Positions 63-40,498 of a stretch of 64,000 nucleotides of DNA are shown here, piece by piece. The position numbers and the translations under genes are program-made. The notes below the pieces were generated by a model. The model did no database searches, was not told the origin of the DNA, and saw only the letters and a list, made by a program, of their open reading frames with translations. The stretch comes from an uncultured Candidatus Actinomarina sp. (lineage in GTDB: Bacteria; Actinomycetota; Acidimicrobiia; Actinomarinales; Actinomarinaceae). How positions within the stretch are numbered: the first letter of the stretch is position 1; each line of letters starts with the position of its first letter. The stretch spans positions 91,741 to 155,740 of the forward strand of contig CACAQC010000001.1 in assembly GCA_902534495.1 (NCBI GenBank), given 5' to 3'.

Positions 63-1754
63 ATGTCAGATAATCAATTGATGAGTCTCGCTACGGATTT
101 TTTTCAAAATTCCCTGGACACCTCACCAACATCGGCAATAATGCGCGGACATAAGAAATACTTTGATCAAATAGAGCAACTTACAGTTGACCAATTTGAA
201 AGAGAAGAAGAAATTGTTGATAGCTTTATTAAACGTTTAAATGCTCTTGATCAAAATAAACTTACAAACAGAGAAAAAGTCACTCATGGTATGTTGGAAT
301 TTGCTCTTAGTTCAAACAAAGATTCTCTTCTTGATAGAAATTGGGAATTTGGAGCTGGGGTATCTGGGTTTACAGGATTTTTAATTGATTACAATCAGCA
401 AATGTTTATTCCTGATTCTGAGTCAGCCGATATGATGTTGAAAAGACTTGAATTATACAAAAGACTATATACCCAAATTGCCGAAGTTCAAAAAGTTGGC
501 CTGAATAACAATAGAGTTGCAACAGAAAGAAACTTATTACGTACTATTGATCAACTAGAGAACTATCTAGCTTCTTCTTTGGATCAAGACCCATTACTTT
601 TGGTCAATTTCTCTCCGGAGATTTCAGACACGGAAATATCTGAATGGAAAGATAAAGCAATAAACATTATTGATTCAAATATTAGACCAACCGTATCAGC
701 TTATTTAGACCAATTAAAAACTGACCATCTTCCTAAGGGACGAGGAGACGACAAATGTGGGATTATGTGGATTGATGGTGGAGAAGAGTCTTATTTAAGA
801 TCATTAAGAAAATATACAGGACATAAAGACACAACAGTAAAAGAAGTTCACGAGATAGGTCTATCAGAAATAGAGAGATTAAAAAAAGAATTTTTTGAAA
901 TAGGAAAAAATGTATTTGATGGAGTTGATACGCCCGAAGATGTAATACACAAAATGCAAACAGAACCTTCAATGAGGTATGAAAGCAAAGAACAGATGTT
1001 ACAACTAGCAATTGATACAATAGAAAGGGCCTATAAGCCTTTGGATCAATGGTTTACAGTATTTCCAAAATCTCCATGTAAAGTTCTCCCAGTACCAGCT
1101 GAATCCGAGCAACATGCTCCACCTGCTTATTACTACCCACCTCTACCAGATGGATCAAGAGATGGTACTTATTTTCTCAATACTTATAAAGCAGAAACAA
1201 AAAGCATCTTTGAGGCTGAATCCGTTGCTTTTCATGAGGCTATACCTGGTCACCATCTTGATAGAACCATTGCCGTAGAGTTACAAGATGTTCCAGATTT
1301 TCAGAGATATGTAGCATCAACAGCATTTGTAGAGGGTTGGGGACTTTATTCAGAGCAATTAGCTAACGAAATGGGTCTTTACTCTAATGATGTTCAGCAA
1401 CTAGGAAGGCTAGGAAATGATGCATGGAGAGGCTGTCGTTTGGTGCTTGATACTGGAATGCACGGTATGGGATGGTCTAGAAATCAAGCTATAGAATTCT
1501 TTAAAGCCAATTCTCCGATAGAAGAACTTAATGCAAATATTGAGACTGATAGATATATTGCTTGGCCTGGTCAGGCTTGCTCCTACAAAATGGGCCAACT
1601 AAAGATTGAGAAACTTCGTAGAAAAGCCGAAAATGAACTTGGTGATAAATTTGATATAAGATACTTTCATGATGAAGTCTTATGTGATGGAGGTATAACA
1701 CTTCCGATTTTAGAAAACAAAATTGACTCTTTTATTGCAAAATATAAAAGCTAA
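63..1754 (+). CDS. DUF885-family protein (metallopeptidase-like)
   Basis: 563-aa ORF preceded by an AAGGAG Shine-Dalgarno. It has the motif FHEAIPGHH (HExxGHH) and a C-terminal block WRGCRLVLDTGMH...ETDRYIAWPGQA, typical of DUF885 proteins as I recall the family. Confidence 0.6.
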   Translation: MSDNQLMSLATDFFQNSLDTSPTSAIMRGHKKYFDQIEQLTVDQFEREEEIVDSFIKRLNALDQNKLTNREKVTHGMLEFALSSNKDSLLDRNWEFGAGVSGFTGFLIDYNQQMFIPDSESADMMLKRLELYKRLYTQIAEVQKVGLNNNRVATERNLLRTIDQLENYLASSLDQDPLLLVNFSPEISDTEISEWKDKAINIIDSNIRPTVSAYLDQLKTDHLPKGRGDDKCGIMWIDGGEESYLRSLRKYTGHKDTTVKEVHEIGLSEIERLKKEFFEIGKNVFDGVDTPEDVIHKMQTEPSMRYESKEQMLQLAIDTIERAYKPLDQWFTVFPKSPCKVLPVPAESEQHAPPAYYYPPLPDGSRDGTYFLNTYKAETKSIFEAESVAFHEAIPGHHLDRTIAVELQDVPDFQRYVASTAFVEGWGLYSEQLANEMGLYSNDVQQLGRLGNDAWRGCRLVLDTGMHGMGWSRNQAIEFFKANSPIEELNANIETDRYIAWPGQACSYKMGQLKIEKLRRKAENELGDKFDIRYFHDEVLCDGGITLPILENKIDSFIAKYKS

Positions 1755-2893
1755 GTAAAAAGATAAGTTAATTTTCTCCAAAACCACTCTAAAGGTCCAT
1801 AATTAAATCTATCTAAAAGTATTTTTGACCAAGTTATTTGAATCATCCAGACTAAAAATACAAAGATCATTAATTGTGATCTAGAAAAGGTATCTAAACC
1901 AAATGCGCCTAAGATAAAAACTCCAAAGATTGTCTGAGTAATATAATTCGTAAAGGCTAACCTACCACTTGCTCGCAATCTATTACTTATAGAATCTTTT
2001 AGTTTCAAATTGAGAATTGTCAATAGCCCTGTATATCCCAGAACCATTGGTATAACTGATAGGGTGTTGAAAATATTGCTGATGAAAAGAACAGATGGAT
2101 CATAGTTTGAACTAACTAGTAAGTAGATACTGTAGATAGCCAAAGGTAAACCTACTGAAAATCCATAAAGAGATATTTTTTTATAATATGAAATTTCTTT
2201 TTTACCTTGAATAATATTTAATTTGTATAACAAAAATCCAAAAAGCATTAAAGATATTGCTCTGAAAAATGCTCCGATATACCACCACATGCCAATAAGG
2301 TAGCCCCAAGATTCTGATTCTGGAAACCAAAACTTGCCGTAAGATAATGCACCTCCTTTACTAGCTAAAAGAACCCACTCTTCTTGTGAAATCAAGTTCC
2401 CACTTGAATCGTACAACGAAGAGAAATAATTTGTTATCAAAACAGATGCTGTCATCAAAAAAACTATTGCAGCAAATATGAATTTCGGATTTTCTACTTT
2501 CGGAAATATTATTAGCAAAAAAGCACAAATTGCATAAGGTGCAAGTATGTCACCTTCCCAAATTGAAAGGTGAATAATCCCAAAACAAAATAATAAAAAA
2601 TTTCTCCAAATAGCTAGTGTTTTTGGTTTTGAAGTCTTTTTTTCTGCATTATCTAAAAATATTATTATACCAACACCAAAAAGCATAGAAAACAAACCCA
2701 TCATTTTATATTCAAAAAATACAGATGAAATTACCAAGACTATCCAATCAAGCGAATTCTCAATTCCGTATGTTGATGAATTTGTAGTTGCAGTAAGCGG
2801 AAGGCCAAATGCTATTACATTCATTACAAGTATTCCCAGCAGAGCAAAGCCTCTTATAAAATCGAGATTTGTAATTCTGTTACTAGAGTTCAC
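1751..2893 (-). CDS. DUF418/YeiB-like polytopic membrane protein
   Basis: N-terminal RITNLDFIRGFALLGILVMN and C-terminal GPLEWFWRKLTY are characteristic of the DUF418 (YeiB) family. I prefer the in-frame GTG at 2893 (MNSSNRITNLDFIRG...) to the track ATG at 3037, because the extra 48 aa look non-homologous and overlap a better small ORF. Confidence 0.6.
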   Translation of the reverse strand: MNSSNRITNLDFIRGFALLGILVMNVIAFGLPLTATTNSSTYGIENSLDWIVLVISSVFFEYKMMGLFSMLFGVGIIIFLDNAEKKTSKPKTLAIWRNFLLFCFGIIHLSIWEGDILAPYAICAFLLIIFPKVENPKFIFAAIVFLMTASVLITNYFSSLYDSSGNLISQEEWVLLASKGGALSYGKFWFPESESWGYLIGMWWYIGAFFRAISLMLFGFLLYKLNIIQGKKEISYYKKISLYGFSVGLPLAIYSIYLLVSSNYDPSVLFISNIFNTLSVIPMVLGYTGLLTILNLKLKDSISNRLRASGRLAFTNYITQTIFGVFILGAFGLDTFSRSQLMIFVFLVWMIQITWSKILLDRFNYGPLEWFWRKLTYLFT

Positions 2894-2903
2894 TAAAAAT
2901 ATA

Positions 2904-3122
2904 CTACTCTTCTTCTTCAGAGTAGCTTTTATTGAACATCCAGAGGATTGTGTATGCCAAAGCAAGACCAAAAATATAGAAATTGAAGTTTTCAACTTCA
3001 TTAATTTGTAATCCAAAAATACCATCAATGATTGCAATGAATACTCTTAGAACTATTCCAGTTCCAACCAATCTTATAAAACTAAACTTTTTTAAAAAAA
3101 GAATTATGTTACCTGTGTCCAT
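2904..3122 (-). CDS. Hypothetical small membrane protein (72 aa, two hydrophobic helices, acidic SEEEE tail)
   Basis: ATG at 3122 lies 11 nt after the hspR stop. The translation is MDTGNIILFLKKFSFIRLVGTGIVLRVFIAIIDGIFGLQINEVENFNFYIFGLALAYTILWMFNKSYSEEEE. It fills an otherwise unexplained stretch in a gap-free genome. I recognise no family. Confidence 0.35.
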   Translation of the reverse strand: MDTGNIILFLKKFSFIRLVGTGIVLRVFIAIIDGIFGLQINEVENFNFYIFGLALAYTILWMFNKSYSEEEE

Positions 3123-3132
3123 TAAGTTTATT

Positions 3133-3522
3133 CTAAGTTGTTTTTTTGATTGATTTATTATTTTTCTTAACAATTTCACTTTTATAGCTTTGGTGAATTT
3201 CTCTTTCTTTAATTTTTGAATCAATTCTCTGGGAAGACATTTCTTGTTCTAGAAAGATAATTTTATCCTGCAAATCTTCTATTTTATCTTTCATCTCATA
3301 GATTATTTTTATTCCGTCTAAATTTATACCACGTTGTGACAAATTTTGAATTTGAATTAATTTGTCTATATCTTCCTGTGAGTAACGTCTAGTTCCTCCA
3401 CCAGTTCTAAATGGCTTAATTAAGCCCTTTTGCTCATAAGTTCTTATAGTTTGTTGGTGAATCCCTGAGAGGGTAGAGGCTACAGAAATAAAATAAATAG
3501 CTTTGGAGTCATCGTTACTCAT
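3133..3522 (-). CDS. hspR: HspR, MerR-family heat-shock repressor
   Basis: MerR-type HTH (YFISVASTLSGIHQQTIRTYEQKGLIKPFRTGGGTRRYSQEDIDKL). It is the last gene of a dnaK-grpE-dnaJ-hspR arrangement. The start at ATG 3522 (MSNDDSK...) gives an ATGAGTAA overlap with the dnaJ stop, and the longer track start at 3576 would lie inside dnaJ. Confidence 0.8.
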   Translation of the reverse strand: MSNDDSKAIYFISVASTLSGIHQQTIRTYEQKGLIKPFRTGGGTRRYSQEDIDKLIQIQNLSQRGINLDGIKIIYEMKDKIEDLQDKIIFLEQEMSSQRIDSKIKEREIHQSYKSEIVKKNNKSIKKTT

Positions 3523-4384
3523 ATAAATAATTCCTTGGATTGTCACCAGATTCAAATTGATCTCGATAATTTTCAAGATATTTCTTTGCCGACCTTGATA
3601 AGTTCTGTGGTGGAGAAATAAATACTTTTACAAACAAATCTCCTGGCCTTCTGCCTTGCGGTGCAATTCCCTCCCCACGAATTTTAAATGTTTTGCCACT
3701 AGGTGTGCCTGAAGGAATTTTTAAAGTAACTGATTTTGTTAATGTTGGAATTTTTATACTTGCTCCTAAAGCAGCTTCACTAAAAAGTAAAGGTATTTGT
3801 AAAATTAGATCCATGTTACTTCTTTTAAAATACTTATGTGGCTCTACTGACACTTGTACCAATAAATCACCATCAGGTGCTCCTGCTGCTCCTGGACCAC
3901 CCCTGCCTCTAAGTCTTATTACACTTCCATTATCAACACCTGCAGGAACTTTGATTTTAATAGACTCATTTTCAACGGGAAGAACAACTTCAATCCCTGA
4001 AGCTGCTTCCATAAAAGATATATTTATATTGGTTTGATATGTCTGACCCTTTCTTCTGCCCCCAAAGCCAAAAATATCTCCTAAGTTTTCAAAAATATCT
4101 CCAAAGTCATCAACAGTAAATCCTTGGCTTGTAAAACCACCAAACCCTGAACTACCCATTGTTCTCATTTGGTCATATTCTTGACGCTTTCTTTCATCGC
4201 CAATCACAGCATGTGCTTCTGAAATTTCTTTAAACCTTTTTTCTGCATCAGAATTATTAGGATTTAAATCTGGATGATTTTCTCTAGCAAGCTTTTTATA
4301 AGCTTTTTTAATTTCTTGTTTAGTAGCATTTTGGGGTACGCCAAGCGTGGCGTAAAAATTTTTATCTAACCAGTCTCTACTCAC
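3515..4384 (-). CDS. dnaJ: J-domain co-chaperone, DnaJ/CbpA-like (class II, no zinc-finger domain)
   Basis: GTG start. It has a J domain with HPD (YKKLARENHPDLNP), a G/F-rich linker and two C-terminal beta-sandwich substrate domains. No CxxCxGxG repeats are present in the 289 aa. Confidence 0.85.
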   Translation of the reverse strand: MSRDWLDKNFYATLGVPQNATKQEIKKAYKKLARENHPDLNPNNSDAEKRFKEISEAHAVIGDERKRQEYDQMRTMGSSGFGGFTSQGFTVDDFGDIFENLGDIFGFGGRRKGQTYQTNINISFMEAASGIEVVLPVENESIKIKVPAGVDNGSVIRLRGRGGPGAAGAPDGDLLVQVSVEPHKYFKRSNMDLILQIPLLFSEAALGASIKIPTLTKSVTLKIPSGTPSGKTFKIRGEGIAPQGRRPGDLFVKVFISPPQNLSRSAKKYLENYRDQFESGDNPRNYLYE

Positions 4385-4865
4385 TTTTAACTTTTACCAT
4401 GGCTGGACGAATTAAGTTTCCCTGAAATAAATATCCTTTTCGCAAAACAGCTTGAATTTTTTGAGATTCTCCCTCTCCTGTATGCTCAACAGCTTCGTGA
4501 AGTGATGGGTCAAAGTCTTCTCCAATTTCCCCCACTCCAGTTACTTGCAAGCTTTCTAGAACTGATTCCAGAAGATTATTAAATGTCTCCACTTCTTTTG
4601 GAATTTTTTCTTGCGTCATAGCCATTTCAAAATTGTCTATTAATGGAAATAATGAACTAACAAAATAAGCTACAGAAGCAGCCCCAATACTTTCTTTTTC
4701 CTTTTCAGTTCTTTTTTTAAAATTATCAAAGTCAGCAGCAAGTCTTAGATAATCATCTTTAATTTTTTCAAATTGTGAGAGGGGAACAGTTGAATCATCA
4801 GATTTTGTATTATCTTCAACAGAATTTTCACCAAACTCATCAACAGTAGACTCTTCTTTATTCAT
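4377..4865 (-). CDS. grpE: Nucleotide exchange factor GrpE
   Basis: 162 aa, positioned between dnaK and dnaJ. It has GrpE-like motifs ([18 protein letters not shown] ... FDPSLHEAV ... [17 protein letters not shown]). Confidence 0.85.
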
Positions 4866-6666
4866 CTTCTATTACTTCACCCTCAACAACATCATCTGTT
4901 TCATTGGTAGATTCACTATTTGAATCATCTTGAGTATCAGCGTATAGCTTTTCAGCAAAAGACTGACTAGCTTTAGAGAGCTCTTCAATTCCAAGCTTTA
5001 GATCATTAATTGGTAACTCTTCGTTTTCCAATAATTTTTTTAGTTTATCAGCAGCTTCCGTTATTGACTGTACTTCCTCCTCTGTTGCTTTATCTTTATT
5101 TTCATCAAGCATTTTTTCAGTTGATGTAACCATTCCTTCTGCCATATTTCGGGTTTCAATAAGCTCTTTTTTCTTGGCATCTTCGTTAGCGTGCTGTTCA
5201 GCATCTTTTATCATTCTGTCTATTTCGTCTTCTTCAAGTGCTGTACCACCTGTAATGGTTATAGCTTGCTCTTTGCCTGTGCCTAAATCTTTCGCATTGA
5301 CATTTACAATACCATTAGCGTCAATGTCAAAAGTTACCTCTATTTGTGGTGTTCCAGCCATCGCTGCAGGAATATCAGTTAAAGTAAACCTTCCTAAAGA
5401 CTTATTTCCAGAAGCCATCTCTCTCTCACCTTGCAAGATGTGAATTTCAACCTGAGTTTGGTTGTTTTCAGCAGTACTAAATACTTCGGACCTTTTAGTT
5501 GGGATTGTTGTATTTCTTTCGATCATTTTGGTCATTATTCCACCTTTGGTTTCAACACCCAAAGTGAGAGGTGTAACATCTAACAAAAGTACATCTTTGA
5601 CATCACCTTTTAGCACACCAGCTTGGATAGCAGCTCCAGATGCAACAACTTCATCAGGATTAACTCCTTTGTGAGGGTCTTTACCGGTTAGAGATTTTAC
5701 AAGTTCCTGTACCGATGGCATTCGAGTTGAGCCACCAACTAAAATTACATGATCAATATCTGAAAATTTCATTCCAGCATCAGATAATGCATTCTCAACC
5801 GGCTTTTTAGTTCTTTCAACCAAGTCTGCTGTAATTTTCTCAAACTCAGATCTACTTAATTTTTCAAGTAAATGTTGAGGCCCCGCATCATTAGCAGTGA
5901 TGAACGGTAAATTAATTTCAGTTTCACTAGTAGATGAAAGTTCAATTTTAGCTTTTTCCGCACCTTCTTGTACCCTTTGGATCGCCATTTTATCATTTGA
6001 TAAATCAATACCAGTAGATGATTTAAATTTATCAATTAACCAATCCATTACTCTTTGATCCCAATCATCTCCACCTAGTTTGGAATCTCCCGACGTTGAT
6101 TTAACTTCAAATACACCTTCAGAGATTTCGAGTATAGAAACATCAAACGTTCCACCTCCCAAATCAAATACAAGAATTTTTTGGTCTTCATTGTTTTCTA
6201 GTCCGTAGGAAAGTGATGCTGCTGTCGGCTCATTTATAATTCTTAATACGTTTAAACCAGCAATTTGACCAGCTTCTTTTGTTGCTTGTCTTTCAGCATC
6301 ATTAAAATATGCTGGCACAGTTATTACAGCATCCGTAACATCATCTCCTAAATATGATTCAGCATCTCTTTTGAGTTTTTGTAGTATTCGTGCTGAAATT
6401 TCTTGAGGTGTATAGTCTTTGCCTTCAAAGTTTTGTTTCCAATTAGTACCAATATGTCTTTTGATCGACCTCACTGTGTTATCTGGATTTGTAATTGCTT
6501 GTCTTTTTGCAAGCTCTCCAACTAAAACTTCTTCTGACTTAAAAGCAACAATGGAAGGTGTTGTTCTATTCCCCTCTGCATTAGCAATTACGGTTGGCTC
6601 TCCACCCTCGAGTACTGCAACAACGCTATTCGTTGTTCCTAAGTCAATTCCTACGGCTTTTCCCAC
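4858..6666 (-). CDS. dnaK: Molecular chaperone DnaK (Hsp70)
   Basis: GTG start with GAGAGGA SD. Canonical Hsp70 signatures are present: [31 protein letters not shown]. Confidence 0.97.
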
Positions 6667-6697
6667 TTTGAACTATCCTCTCTTAAATTTTTTTTAT

Positions 6698-6901
6698 TTA
6701 TAAACTACGCTCTTGCTCTCTTGGCAAATGTCCTCTTACCCTCGGATAGGAGACAGGTGCGTGAAGAAAACAAAATTTCTTTTTGTTATATACGCTTATC
6801 ACTGTTTCACAAGTATCAAATGCGCATACTCTACCTGTTGTGTATTTTTTTGATCTCCTTACACCAGGCTTAACTTGTGATGCAGTTAATGTTCCGCTCA
6901 T
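6698..6901 (-). CDS. Small basic Cys/His protein (67 aa), putative zinc-ribbon-like; first gene of the dnaK operon
   Basis: ATG with AAAGAGGA SD. The stop lies 31 nt upstream of the dnaK GTG. The pattern C-x4-C-x12-C-x2-H occurs in RVCAFDTCETVISVYNKKKFCFLH. I recognise no family. Confidence 0.45.
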   Translation of the reverse strand: MSGTLTASQVKPGVRRSKKYTTGRVCAFDTCETVISVYNKKKFCFLHAPVSYPRVRGHLPREQERSL

Positions 6902-6940
6902 TGTTTACCATCCTCTTTATCTATGTTATTATATATATAT

Positions 6941-6964
6941 AATCTAAGCATAATTACTTAGATT
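6941..6964. promoter_or_regulatory. Perfect inverted repeat AATCTAAG-N8-CTTAGATT, candidate operator (HspR?) in the dnaK-operon promoter region
   Basis: Read directly: 8-bp arms with an 8-nt spacer. It lies about 40 nt upstream of the small ORF start and just downstream of a minus-strand TTGCAT-N16-TATATT promoter-like pair. Confidence 0.4.
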
Positions 6965-7065
6965 TGTTTATTAATATATCATACTCATAAATTTATGCAA
7001 ATAAATTTTATAAAAAGATAAAAATATACAGTTTTAGAAATTATTGAACCACCTGATACTATTGA

Positions 7066-7863
7066 ATGATGAAAAAAATAGATATTAGTATTCTAGGCCT
7101 TGGTAACTTAGGAACTGCTTTTTTTGAAGGTTTGCATAAAAATGGCAATATAAATTTGCACTTATACGAAGAAAATGAGCAGACAAGGAGGAGTTTACTT
7201 AAATCATATGACACTAAAATACTGCCGAATATTGAAACTATTGATTCTGGAATTTTAATACTGTGCATTAAACCACAAAATATTAAAGACTTTTTTAAAT
7301 CATCCTCTAACAAAATTGGTGAGAATGTACTAATTTGTTCACCTGTTGCTGGGTTAGAAATTGAAACAGTAAATCAATATGTTGAAAATAAAATAATTAG
7401 AATTATGCCTAATTTATTAATCAGAGAAAATAATGGATTTATTCCATTTGTAAAAAATTATGATGGCGACTACTTAAATTTTATTGATATGGGGCTATCG
7501 TTTTTAGGCAACATAGAAGAATTTGATGAAGAACTATTTGCACTCATAACAGCAATATCTGGAAGTGGTCCAGCTTGGTTTTATGAGCTTTCAAATCAAC
7601 TTGTAAATTCAGCCACCAAGCTAGGAATGAATGAAAATGATGCAACAAATTTAGTAAAAGGATTGATTAAAGCTTTACCAAATCTAATTAATGAAGATGA
7701 TACTTTTGATGAACTTGTAAATAAAGTTAAATCTCCAAAAGGCACTACAGAAGCTGGCCTCAATTCGCTTATTGTTGATAACTTTGATAATATTATCTTC
7801 AATGCAATTCGTCAGGCAACAAATAGATCGATTGAAATATCAACTGAATTAAAAAATGAATAA
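7066..7863 (+). CDS. proC: Pyrroline-5-carboxylate reductase
   Basis: N-terminal Rossmann ILGLGNLGTA. The C-terminal signature VKSPKGTTEAGL is typical of ProC. Confidence 0.8.
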   Translation: MMKKIDISILGLGNLGTAFFEGLHKNGNINLHLYEENEQTRRSLLKSYDTKILPNIETIDSGILILCIKPQNIKDFFKSSSNKIGENVLICSPVAGLEIETVNQYVENKIIRIMPNLLIRENNGFIPFVKNYDGDYLNFIDMGLSFLGNIEEFDEELFALITAISGSGPAWFYELSNQLVNSATKLGMNENDATNLVKGLIKALPNLINEDDTFDELVNKVKSPKGTTEAGLNSLIVDNFDNIIFNAIRQATNRSIEISTELKNE

Positions 7864-13771: not shown

Positions 13772-14587
13772 ATGTACTTGATTGATGGCATCGAAGTTGA
13801 AAAAAAAGATTTCATACTACCAGTAGAAAATATTGGAGTGTGGAGAGGCGATGGAATTTTTGAAGCAATTAGAATTCATGAAGGCTACCCGTTTGGTATA
13901 GATTTACACATTGAAAGATTTAAAAAATCGGCATCTAAGGTATTTTTCGACAATATAAATTTTGAAAAAATTAAAAGAGATATTTTGCTGGTCGCAGAAA
14001 ATTTTCATAATGGTTATGTCAGGACATTGATTTTAAGAAATGAAAAAGATACATTTAATGTTTATTGCTTTTATCAGCCACCGATAAAACTTCCAAGAAA
14101 TTTTACTCTGCAAACTCAAAAAGCATACTGGCAAGGTGGTGGAGATTTCTTAGAACAGGATGTATTTAATATTGGTACAAAATCTACATCATATGCAATG
14201 AATATCAGTCACACAAGACTTGCCGAGTCAAATGGATATACAGACGCCTTACTAGTTAACAGAGAAAACATTATTCTTGAAGGTCCTACTTGGACGTTTG
14301 GATGGATATTGAACGATAAAATACACATACCTGATCTAGAGCTTGGAATCCTTGATTCAATAACTCGTAAATATTTACTTCGTTTTGGTGAGGAAAAAAA
14401 GTTAGATGTATCCATCGGGCGTCTTGCTAAAGATGAATTAGAAAATATACAATGTGGATTTGTATTATCAACTGCAAAACATGCAGTACCCGTAACTAAA
14501 ATAAACGAAATAGAGTACTCTCAGCATCCTTTGATTAATGAGATTCAAAAAACGTTTAAAGACGAAGTAAATAAAGAGCGTTCTTAA
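13772..14587 (+). CDS. Class IV aminotransferase (BCAT / aminodeoxychorismate-lyase family)
   Basis: 271 aa with fold-type IV features (RGDGIFEAIRI, ILEGPTWTFGW, GILDSITR). Confidence 0.7.
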   Translation: MYLIDGIEVEKKDFILPVENIGVWRGDGIFEAIRIHEGYPFGIDLHIERFKKSASKVFFDNINFEKIKRDILLVAENFHNGYVRTLILRNEKDTFNVYCFYQPPIKLPRNFTLQTQKAYWQGGGDFLEQDVFNIGTKSTSYAMNISHTRLAESNGYTDALLVNRENIILEGPTWTFGWILNDKIHIPDLELGILDSITRKYLLRFGEEKKLDVSIGRLAKDELENIQCGFVLSTAKHAVPVTKINEIEYSQHPLINEIQKTFKDEVNKERS

Positions 14588-14598
14588 AAGGAGGTGTG

Positions 14599-15639
14599 AT
14601 GAGATTAACAGAGTACTCACATGGTGCCGGTTGAGCATGTAAACTCTCACAAAAAGAGCTTGCTCAGGTACTGACGCATTTTAAACAACAAAATAATTCA
14701 GACACTTCAAAAATCTTAGTTGGATTAGATTCGCCTGACGACGGGGGTGTAATTGATATTGGTAATGGAATCAAATTAGTCCAAACCGTCGATTTTTTTA
14801 CACCAATATTAGACAACCCTTTCGATTGGGGAAAAGTTGCAGCTGCGAATGCATTGTCTGATATTTATGCAATGGGTGGAACTCCTGTATCCTCTTTACA
14901 ACTTGTTTCATGGCCAAGAGATGATTTAAGTTTCGAAATACTATCAGAGGTTTTAAAAGGTGGCTTGGAAATCATGCAGAGTGCTGGATGTAACATAATT
15001 GGAGGACACAGCATCGATGATAAAGAGCCCAAGTATGGTTTTGCAGTAACGGGAATAATTAATGAAGTTATCTATAAAAAAAGAAACCTTCAAGTTGGTG
15101 ATAAACTTTTTTTAACAAAACCTCTAGGTTCTGGAATTATCTCTTCTGCAATAAAAAAAAATATAGCGAGTGAAAAATCGATATCTGAAGTAACAAAAGT
15201 AATGTCAACATTGAATGACAAAGCACTTGAAGTTGCCAAAGAATTAAATGCAAATGCTATTACAGACGTGACAGGTTTTGGACTATTGGGACACCTAATT
15301 GAAATGGTTGGAGATTCAAGTGTGACAGTAAATATTTATTTGGAAAATGTACCTGTCATTGAGTTCGCAAAGGAATATTTTAACAATGGTATTTATCCCT
15401 CAGGTTCGAAAAGAAATTTTGATGCTGCCAGAGAAAATACAAACTATGACATTGATCAAGAATATTTTGTTAAAATTTTGTCAGATGCTCAAACAAGCGG
15501 AGGGTTACTGTTCTCAGCACCAAGTGATGATTCAATAAATATAGATGATATATGCAAAAGATTCGGAGTAAAAATTTGGGAAATTGGAGATATTGTTTCT
15601 AAATATAAAAATAAAGTCAATATCATTAAAGACAAATGA
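14599..15639 (+). CDS. selD: Selenide, water dikinase (selenophosphate synthetase), Sec-containing: in-frame TGA at 14632-14634
   Basis: ATG at 14599 follows AAAGGAGG. The translation MRLTEYSHGAG-[TGA]-ACKLSQKELAQVL...VIDIGNGIKLVQTVDFFTPILDNPFDWGKVAAANALSDIYAMGGTP is in the same frame as, and continuous with, track ORF 14854..15639. There are no other stops. The TGA sits at the SelD catalytic Cys/Sec position (E. coli ...YSHGAGCGCK). Confidence 0.85.
14632..14666 (+). other. Candidate bacterial SECIS hairpin starting at the UGA
   Basis: TGAGCA (14632-37) pairs with TGCTCA (14661-66). The upper stem is CTCT (14644-47) with AGAG (14555+100 region, 14655-58), plus an A42-T60 pair, around a 7-nt loop CACAAAA. 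I folded this by eye only. Confidence 0.4.
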
Positions 15640-39407: not shown

Positions 39408-39734
39408 TTATTTCATTATAGGCAGTTGACCACTATCAGATTTATTAGAAATTTCTTCTTCGGCAATAATCTGAGATTCTCTTACTGCTAAAACAACTTT
39501 TCCAGTTGGTGGCCATATAAACTTCCATGCACCACTTGCAACTGCCCAAAATTGATTTCCAGAATCAACATCAATTAAAGGCAGTGCCTCAGAAGTTTTT
39601 TCGCTACCTGCCGGTACTAATAAGCCTGACTTAGTAAAAGTCTCTTCTCTTAAGTGACCTACTCTCCAACCTGGCGAAACTTTAAATCCCGGCGGTGCGA
39701 AATCAATGTTGTCCAAGGTATTTTCTTCTGTCAT
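39408..39734 (-). CDS. Hypothetical 108-aa protein, possibly a divergent Cpn10/GroES-fold protein
   Basis: By eye, PGWRVGHLREETFTKSGLLVPAGSEKTSEA and the tail KVVLAVRESQIIA parallel GroES (P.GDRV.V...E.T.GGI..P...KEK ... VLI..ESDILA). The middle is unlike canonical GroES and no groEL is adjacent. Confidence 0.4.
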   Translation of the reverse strand: MTEENTLDNIDFAPPGFKVSPGWRVGHLREETFTKSGLLVPAGSEKTSEALPLIDVDSGNQFWAVASGAWKFIWPPTGKVVLAVRESQIIAEEEISNKSDSGQLPIMK

Positions 39735-39769
39735 TTTCTTATATTAAACATAAAAAAAGTATAAATTAG

Positions 39770-39861
39770 CGGAGGTGGACAGGAATCGAACCTGCCAAAG
39801 ACTTTTACACCTTTCAACAGTTTTGAAGACTGTGGAGCCCACCAGGCGCTCATTCACCTCC
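39770..39861 (-). tRNA. selC: tRNA-Sec (anticodon UCA), 92 nt without CCA
   Basis: The reverse complement is GGAGGTGAATGAGCGCCTGGTGGGCTCCACAGTCTTCAAAACTGTTGAAAGGTGTAAAAGTCTTTGGCAGGTTCGATTCCTGTCCACCTCCG. The acceptor pairs GGAGGTG with CACCTCC and has an extra eighth position. The anticodon arm is ACAGT-CTTCAAA-ACTGT, so the anticodon is TCA. The variable arm is about 20 nt. The T-arm is GCAGG-TTCGATT-CCTGT. It is not in the ORF track. Confidence 0.85.
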
Positions 39862-39913: not shown

Positions 39914-40498
39914 ATGAAAAGTTTTCAACAAACATTTAATGAACTTAAGAAAGCAAGAGGATTGAGCAATAAACAGATTGCTTCATTTACCGGTGTAAAA
40001 CTTAAGGATGTAAAACAATGGGAAACTGGTACAAGTTTTCCGAATGAAACTAAGGTAGTCGATGCACTAGAAGGATTATTGGGTACTGAAATTAGCAAAT
40101 CACTAGAGGGATACACTTCCCAAAGTAAAGTAAATAGTCAATTAAAAACTTCAGAGGATAATATTTTTAAAGTAAAAAATGAAAAACTAGATGTTACAAA
40201 TACAAAAATTGATAAGTTACGATACTTGCTTCAAAAGCAACCTCAAAATACAACGGACTATGAATTTGATAACGAAATTGAAAACATAACAGATGATTAC
40301 TATTTTGAAGAAGATGCAAATACACCTTTAAAAGAAATCTTAGAAAAACCATATTTATACGATGAAAATCAACTAGGCTTCTATTTTTCAAGAAATTTAA
40401 AAACCCTATGCCTACTTTCTGTTTTAGGTTTAATCATTTTCAGTTTTTTTCAACTGTTTTGGGATTCCTTTAACTTATTTATAGATAACTTACTGTGA
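39914..40498 (+). CDS. Membrane-anchored XRE-type HTH protein
   Basis: N-terminal HTH (LKKARGLSNKQIASFTGVKLKDVKQWETG), an acidic middle, and a C-terminal TM helix (LCLLSVLGLIIFSFFQLFW). It has a 4-nt overlap with ctaA. Confidence 0.55.
   Translation: MKSFQQTFNELKKARGLSNKQIASFTGVKLKDVKQWETGTSFPNETKVVDALEGLLGTEISKSLEGYTSQSKVNSQLKTSEDNIFKVKNEKLDVTNTKIDKLRYLLQKQPQNTTDYEFDNEIENITDDYYFEEDANTPLKEILEKPYLYDENQLGFYFSRNLKTLCLLSVLGLIIFSFFQLFWDSFNLFIDNLL

Follow-up and report, generated by a model that had tools for sequence, protein, structure and literature searches.

The selD gene in the stretch of Candidatus Actinomarina DNA analysed here (64 kb in all, hereafter the window) very probably encodes a selenoprotein, in which selenocysteine (Sec) would be inserted into the catalytic N-terminal loop at the UGA codon of positions 14632–14634, directed by SelB and a downstream stem-loop, H2. 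This reading rests on the reading frame, the family of the protein, the alignment and conservation of the UGA codon, a tRNA-Sec, and a conserved hairpin that covaries among relatives. That Actinomarina possesses a Sec-containing SelD (Sec-SelD) is already known: such enzymes are textbook knowledge for SelD, and a preprint of April 2026, 'Actinomarina, resolved' by Nielsen & Lui (bioRxiv 10.64898/2026.04.03.716425; hereafter the preprint), reported them for the genus. Our additions are small, namely the definition of a covarying SECIS hairpin built from rare codons and a Sec form that looks fixed across the order, not confined to half of the genomes.

The selD reading frame and its catalytic codon

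The coding sequence of selD extends from 14599 to 15639 on the forward strand and, as translated, comprises 346 sense codons, including Sec at residue 12, plus the stop codon TGA at 15637–15639, shared in part with the ATG of the following gene. An earlier note on this DNA had claimed a frame running from ATG 14599 with one TGA and no other stop, and translation bore this out, the TGA at 14632–14634 being the sole internal stop. The sequence that the note had seen ahead of ATG 14599 was read directly at 14587–14594 (forward strand) as the Shine-Dalgarno motif AAAGGAGG, 4 nt before the start codon, and its first base is shared with the last base of the TAA stop codon of the upstream gene (14585–14587). 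A GGAGG-like site stands at equal spacing before the selD start in all 53 low-GC relatives, of which 20 (38%) start with ATG, 17 with GTG and 16 with TTG.

Between 14635 and 14853 there is no in-frame ATG, GTG or TTG; the first such codon after the TGA is TTG 14854, which is why the mechanical ORF list starts the gene there. The start coordinate of the ORF track was thus reported correctly, but the codon that had been called a Met is a TTG, encoding the Leu of ...NALSD.... The 266-nt gap that had been noticed ahead of it is also real in that list, where 14588–14853 is non-coding, and it is an artefact of treating the TGA as a stop. With the extended selD, the coding share of the window in our ORF-based gene map is 97%.

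For profile searches, a Cys was put in place of the TGA-encoded residue. The resulting protein matched the selD equivalog model TIGR00476 with 368.1 bits (cutoff 125) over residues 2–310 and NF002098 with 341.8 bits (cutoff 299) over residues 1–340, as well as the SelD structures of E. coli (PDB 3u0o, E = 4.7e-80, residues 1–334) and Aquifex (PDB 2yye, E = 2.9e-69). Judged by its sequence, 14599–15639 unambiguously encodes a selenide, water dikinase (SelD, selenophosphate synthetase), and the SelD N-terminus that had been proposed for it is recovered, the TIGR00476 match beginning at residue 2. The Asp motifs DDGGV (DDxxV), VDFFTP (VDFF), SDIYAMGG (SDIxAMGG) and TDVTGFGLLGH are kept in the alignment with E. 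coli SelD; in this family, these Asp-containing motifs are those of the PurM-like ATP/metal site.

The candidate Sec codon, UGA 14632–14634 on the forward strand, specifies residue 12 within the motif GAG-U-A-C-K. This residue aligns to Cys17 of E. coli SelD, and Lys15 aligns to Lys20 (YSHGAG-U-A-C-K in the window versus YSHGAG-C-G-C-K in 3u0o), indicating that the glycine-rich N-terminal loop is present with its Sec/Cys and Lys. Residue 12 also falls where Aquifex SelD has Sec13 and aligns there with the engineered Cys of 2yye, the Aquifex structures 2yye and 2zod both being of the Sec13Cys form. The suggestion that the TGA sits at the catalytic Cys/Sec column is confirmed by both alignments.

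It is very unlikely that the UGA codon terminates translation and a truncated product is made from an internal start such as TTG 14854, or that a near-cognate tRNA reads the codon as Trp or Cys. Sec insertion is here a prediction from the sequence, and standard gene callers do output just that shortened ORF, cutting selD by 85 residues and losing the catalytic loop; a start at 14854, however, would drop residues 1–85 with the Sec/Cys-x-Cys-Lys loop and two Asp motifs, the TTG lacks an evident ribosome-binding site and corresponds to an internal Leu throughout the homologs, and the preceding stretch from 14635 offers no alternative start codon. Near-cognate reading, for its part, sits poorly with the dedicated tRNA-Sec and the SECIS-type hairpin described below. 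For annotation, Actinomarina-like selD genes, read as Sec-SelD, should be called from the upstream ATG, GTG or TTG with a Sec exception.

Conservation of the UGA codon and the decoding machinery

A scan of GTDB species representatives gave 80 loci that, together with the window, supplied 82 selD copies, the nearest loci being Candidatus Actinomarina/OCS155 single-cell genomes (L001, 96% identical). The catalytic column holds TGA in 81 of the 82 copies and TGC in one (L060, a Binatia MAG). TGA is found in every one of the 53 low-GC Actinomarinales-type copies, as well as in selD copies of other Acidimicrobiia, Marinimicrobia/Fidelibacterota and other Binatia, and the 11 codons before the TGA keep their amino acids across relatives, with synonymous changes present. 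This pattern bears on the idea that the TGA arose through faulty sequencing or assembly, or through a mutation that inactivates the gene, selD then being a pseudogene or really carrying a Cys codon. Although the window is a single sequence, TGA and TGC are one base apart and L060 does have TGC, such an explanation is extremely improbable, given a TGA in 81/82 independently assembled copies (single-cell genomes and MAGs from several phyla), the conservation of the 11 upstream codons and the ribosome-binding site, and RNA-level selection on the downstream hairpin. Because the TGA is kept across independent single-cell and metagenome assemblies, we rule out an error of sequencing or assembly, as well as a pseudogene, and retain a genuine UGA codon.

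Two further observations were made among the relatives. One Fidelibacterota MAG (L067) carries two selD paralogues, at 3383 and 10031, about 6.6 kb apart, both with TGA in the catalytic column and with near-identical hairpins downstream. Three short contigs labelled as Methanosarcinales, Methanobacteriota and Melainabacteria MAGs (L034, L036 and L052) carry low-GC selD genes (32–35%) whose SECIS region is identical or nearly so to that of Actinomarina loci; these contigs probably entered those MAGs as contamination during binning.

The tRNA with a UCA anticodon that had been noticed in the window proved to be a tRNA-Sec by two programs. ARAGORN found one tRNA in the window, tRNA-Sec (UCA), at 39769–39861 on the reverse strand, and Rfam model RF01852 matched selC at 39771–39861 (reverse strand) over its full length with 75.4 bits (gathering score 47), including the long variable arm. 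Neither selA nor selB was found in the 64-kb window by NCBIfam searches of 30 of the largest ORFs, which covered all candidate sizes. Searches by tblastn with the two E. coli proteins as queries, which matched PDB 8uzw and 5lzb over their full length, likewise gave no homolog, either in the window or in the sequence up to 10 kb from selD in the 80 loci. That both genes exist elsewhere in the genome is taken from the preprint, which reports selA, selC, selD and a divergent selB, the latter scoring below the KofamScan threshold, in 84 of 84 complete Actinomarina genomes.

UGA might instead have become a codon for Trp or Gly throughout the genome, as in some small AT-rich genomes, and this genome is small and AT-rich as well (the window has 30–38% GC in 4-kb bins and about 33% overall). 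The probability of such a reassignment is nevertheless negligible. Among 57 mapped window genes, 32 end in TAA, 14 in TAG and 11 in TGA, selD included, the TGA stops lying at sites that fit full-length homologs; UGA is therefore not reassigned. The only tRNA with a UCA anticodon has tRNA-Sec architecture, and a scan reading TGA as sense, combined with a listing of intergenic gaps, gave no other credible TGA-interrupted gene in the window.

On one side, selC is flanked by a 108-aa ORF (39408–39734, reverse strand) with no NCBIfam or Pfam match, and on the other by a 194-aa HTH protein (39914–40498, forward strand) with a weak RstR/phage-repressor-like match. These surroundings are consistent with a remark in the preprint, according to which selC is often located inside, or close to, a hypervariable island bounded by tRNAs.

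A SECIS-like hairpin downstream of the UGA codon

The earlier note had called for a search for a SECIS element after the TGA, and a SECIS-like hairpin was found there, supported by covariation and by synonymous recoding. The predicted SECIS apical stem-loop, H2, occupies 14662–14677 on the forward strand (GCUCAG-GUA-CUGA(C)GC); its loop contains G14668 and U14669, and C14675 forms a bulge. In a gap-free alignment starting from the UGA codon (58 sequences, 52 distinct), RNAalifold predicted a single helix formed by columns 33–36 and 40–43 around the loop G37-U38-N39, and this core is paired in 97.6% of cells over the 52 distinct sequences. In 500 column shuffles, neither the pairing nor the covariation score ever came up to that of the real alignment, and in slid controls pairing of the core fell to 30–49%. 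The pair 36–40 is G-C in 33 sequences, A-U in 14, G-U in 4 and mismatched in 1; both changes are synonymous (Gln CAG/CAA and Leu CUG/UUG), and the covariation is therefore at the RNA level. The third pair, 33–43, occurs as UA, GC, CG, UG and AU. In Actinomarinales, H2 is lengthened by the pairs 31–46 and 32–45, position 44 being bulged; this longer stem is 98% paired, and two loci (L024 and L046) keep its pairing via double changes.

In a recoding test, the synonymous codons of residues 13–31 were redrawn 5000 times from the codon usage of the window. The H2 segment (columns 29–48) folds with −5.3 kcal/mol, compared with −0.2 ± 0.6 kcal/mol for the recoded sequences, none of which (0/5000) was as stable. 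The pairing positions of H2 are occupied by rare codons, CTC (4.7%) and CTG (4.6%) for Leu and ACG (6.4%) for Thr, meaning that rare codons are spent on keeping a SECIS hairpin within coding sequence. As judged from these sequence comparisons, H2 is under selection at the RNA level.

Between the UGA codon and H2 lies a weak hairpin, H1 (CUCU/AGAG, 14644–14658, forward strand), whose function is uncertain. It is paired in 86% of cells in Actinomarinales and in 77% over all relatives, its register shifts between clades, and its result in the synonymous-recoding test was marginal (5.4%). A model with two hairpins in a fixed register for all phyla was rejected, being paired in 74.5%, with the register of H1 shifting and the Binatia hairpin lying 5 nt nearer the UGA codon; because this fixed register fails across phyla, we retain H1 as no more than a weak and uncertain feature. 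Also rejected was the minimum-free-energy hairpin that pairs the UGA codon itself (UGAGCA/UGCUCA), which shows no covariation, is equalled or exceeded by shuffles and is broken in GC-rich relatives. Folding of the single sequence was not significant (z = −0.75 for 14625–14700 and −0.29 for 14632–14680).

At gathering thresholds, no Rfam SECIS family matched in the window, and Rfam models gave no SECIS in the preprint either. The bacterial SECIS consensus of the bSECISearch model asks for a loop N1-G-[G|U]-N-N2 with N1 and N2 paired, a spacing of 16–37 nt, a stem of at least 4 bp and an MFE of −7.5 kcal/mol or lower (PMC13188914). Three of these four features are found in H2, which has the loop G-G-U-A-C with its G and C paired, a stem of at least 4 bp and a spacing of 32–33 nt. 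In this AT-rich genome the energy is borderline, at −5.3 kcal/mol for H2 alone and about −6 to −7 kcal/mol for H1 and H2 together against the −7.5 kcal/mol of the consensus: columns 10–48, which contain both hairpins, fold with −7.2 kcal/mol, and the specified H1 plus H2 structure has −6.3 kcal/mol. An MFE of −8.8 kcal/mol is reached over 60 nt, but via an alternative pairing that is not conserved. In GC-rich relatives, both hairpins fold into a junction of −30.8 kcal/mol.

H2 resembles the SECIS of E. coli fdhF in its short stem, in an A-U followed by a G-C closing pair, and in a loop exposing G-U. The sequence GGCGCA-GGUUC-UGCGCC of the GC-rich relatives comes close to the fdhF core GCAGGUCUGC. 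In fdhF the G-U is at +23/24 from the U of the UGA codon, whereas here it is at +37/38, near the upper limit of the consensus; further differences from fdhF are the second, weak hairpin that fills the spacer and a stability at or below the −7.5 kcal/mol criterion.

The position of the G-U is +37/38 in Actinomarinales and Acidimicrobiia selD. Three Sec-type Binatia loci (L068, L069 and L077) have a GGU-loop hairpin about 5 nt nearer the UGA codon, with the G-U at +32/33, showing that SECIS spacing varies within one gene family. L060, the only Cys (TGC) variant, retains a degraded hairpin remnant (GAUCUC-GGC-GAGAUU) where its relatives among the Sec-type Binatia read GGAUCUC-GGUG-AGAUCC, suggesting that Sec gave way to Cys recently.

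From the features above we infer SelB binding and the actual insertion of Sec, for which the following mechanism, the canonical one of bacteria, is proposed. SelB carrying Sec-tRNA(Sec) would bind the stem-loop at 14662–14677, recognising the G-U that H2 is predicted to expose 33–34 nt downstream of the UGA codon, and would bring Sec to the A site in place of release factor 2. The SelD so produced would make selenophosphate, which SelA would use to form Sec-tRNA(Sec). As SelA needs the selenophosphate of SelD, the pathway would feed back on itself in a positive loop.

Relation to known systems and other features of the window

The Sec-SelDs of Haemophilus influenzae, Aquifex aeolicus and Methanocaldococcus jannaschii belong to the same family as the enzyme studied here, with a UGA-encoded Sec at the same loop position, and share its self-referential logic of a Sec enzyme making the selenium donor for Sec. 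The present system differs from them in its host, a marine actinobacterium with a genome of about 1.1 Mb and 33% GC, and in a SECIS that is lineage-specific and maintained with rare codons. According to the preprint, which cites Guimaraes et al. 1996, a Sec-containing SelD was described in 1996. Marine metagenome surveys since 2005–2008 have placed Sec-SelD among the commonest marine selenoproteins, and in the Global Ocean Sampling data it was among the two selenoprotein families with the widest distribution, with 357 sequences in 40 samples (PMC2398784).

Within the genus, the preprint describes a selenoprotein selD family with an MRLT prefix and 342–346 aa, with which the selD of the window agrees in genus, MRLT N-terminus, length (346 aa) and conclusion. 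It also argues the cost of Sec decoding in a 1.1-Mb genome, and had thus already made the point that this cost is borne in full even by a marine genome so small and streamlined. The two analyses differ in the frequency of the Sec form: the preprint infers Sec-SelD in about half of the genomes, the rest having 'presumably' the Cys form, whereas we found TGA in 53 of 53 low-GC Actinomarinales-type loci at the species level. The Cys half is probably an artefact of detection or grouping. Since TGA is universal among these 53 and only 38% of them start with ATG, the shortfall of Sec-SelD in the preprint more likely arises from GTG and TTG starts together with grouping by the first 20 residues.

There is about an even chance that Sec-SelD and its SECIS are fixed across Actinomarinales and the marine Acidimicrobiia relatives, with no Cys variant. 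If this is true and no Cys paralogue lies elsewhere in the genome, a bacterium among the most abundant of the surface ocean would depend on an autocatalytic selenium loop, in which each daughter cell must inherit active SelD and selenium supply is a hard constraint on the lineage. The covarying hairpin could also seed a lineage-specific SECIS model for the other approximately five selenoproteins per genome.

Two other regions of the window were noted. At 1751–3576 on the reverse strand, three ORFs overlap (1751–3037, DUF418/YeiB-like; 2904–3224; and 3133–3576), 95 nt (3038–3132) are left uncovered, and the start sites or gene boundaries are ambiguous. The largest non-coding stretch of this 97%-coding window is the 399 nt at 6667–7065, between the divergent dnaK (4858–6666, reverse strand) and a P5C-reductase-like gene (7066–7863, forward strand). 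It contains a 67-aa ORF that has no Pfam match, and it gave no Rfam match at E ≤ 1. The dnaK-proximal 244 nt, taken on the reverse strand, fold moderately better than shuffled sequences (z = −2.33), and the stretch may be a structured 5′ leader or a small RNA.
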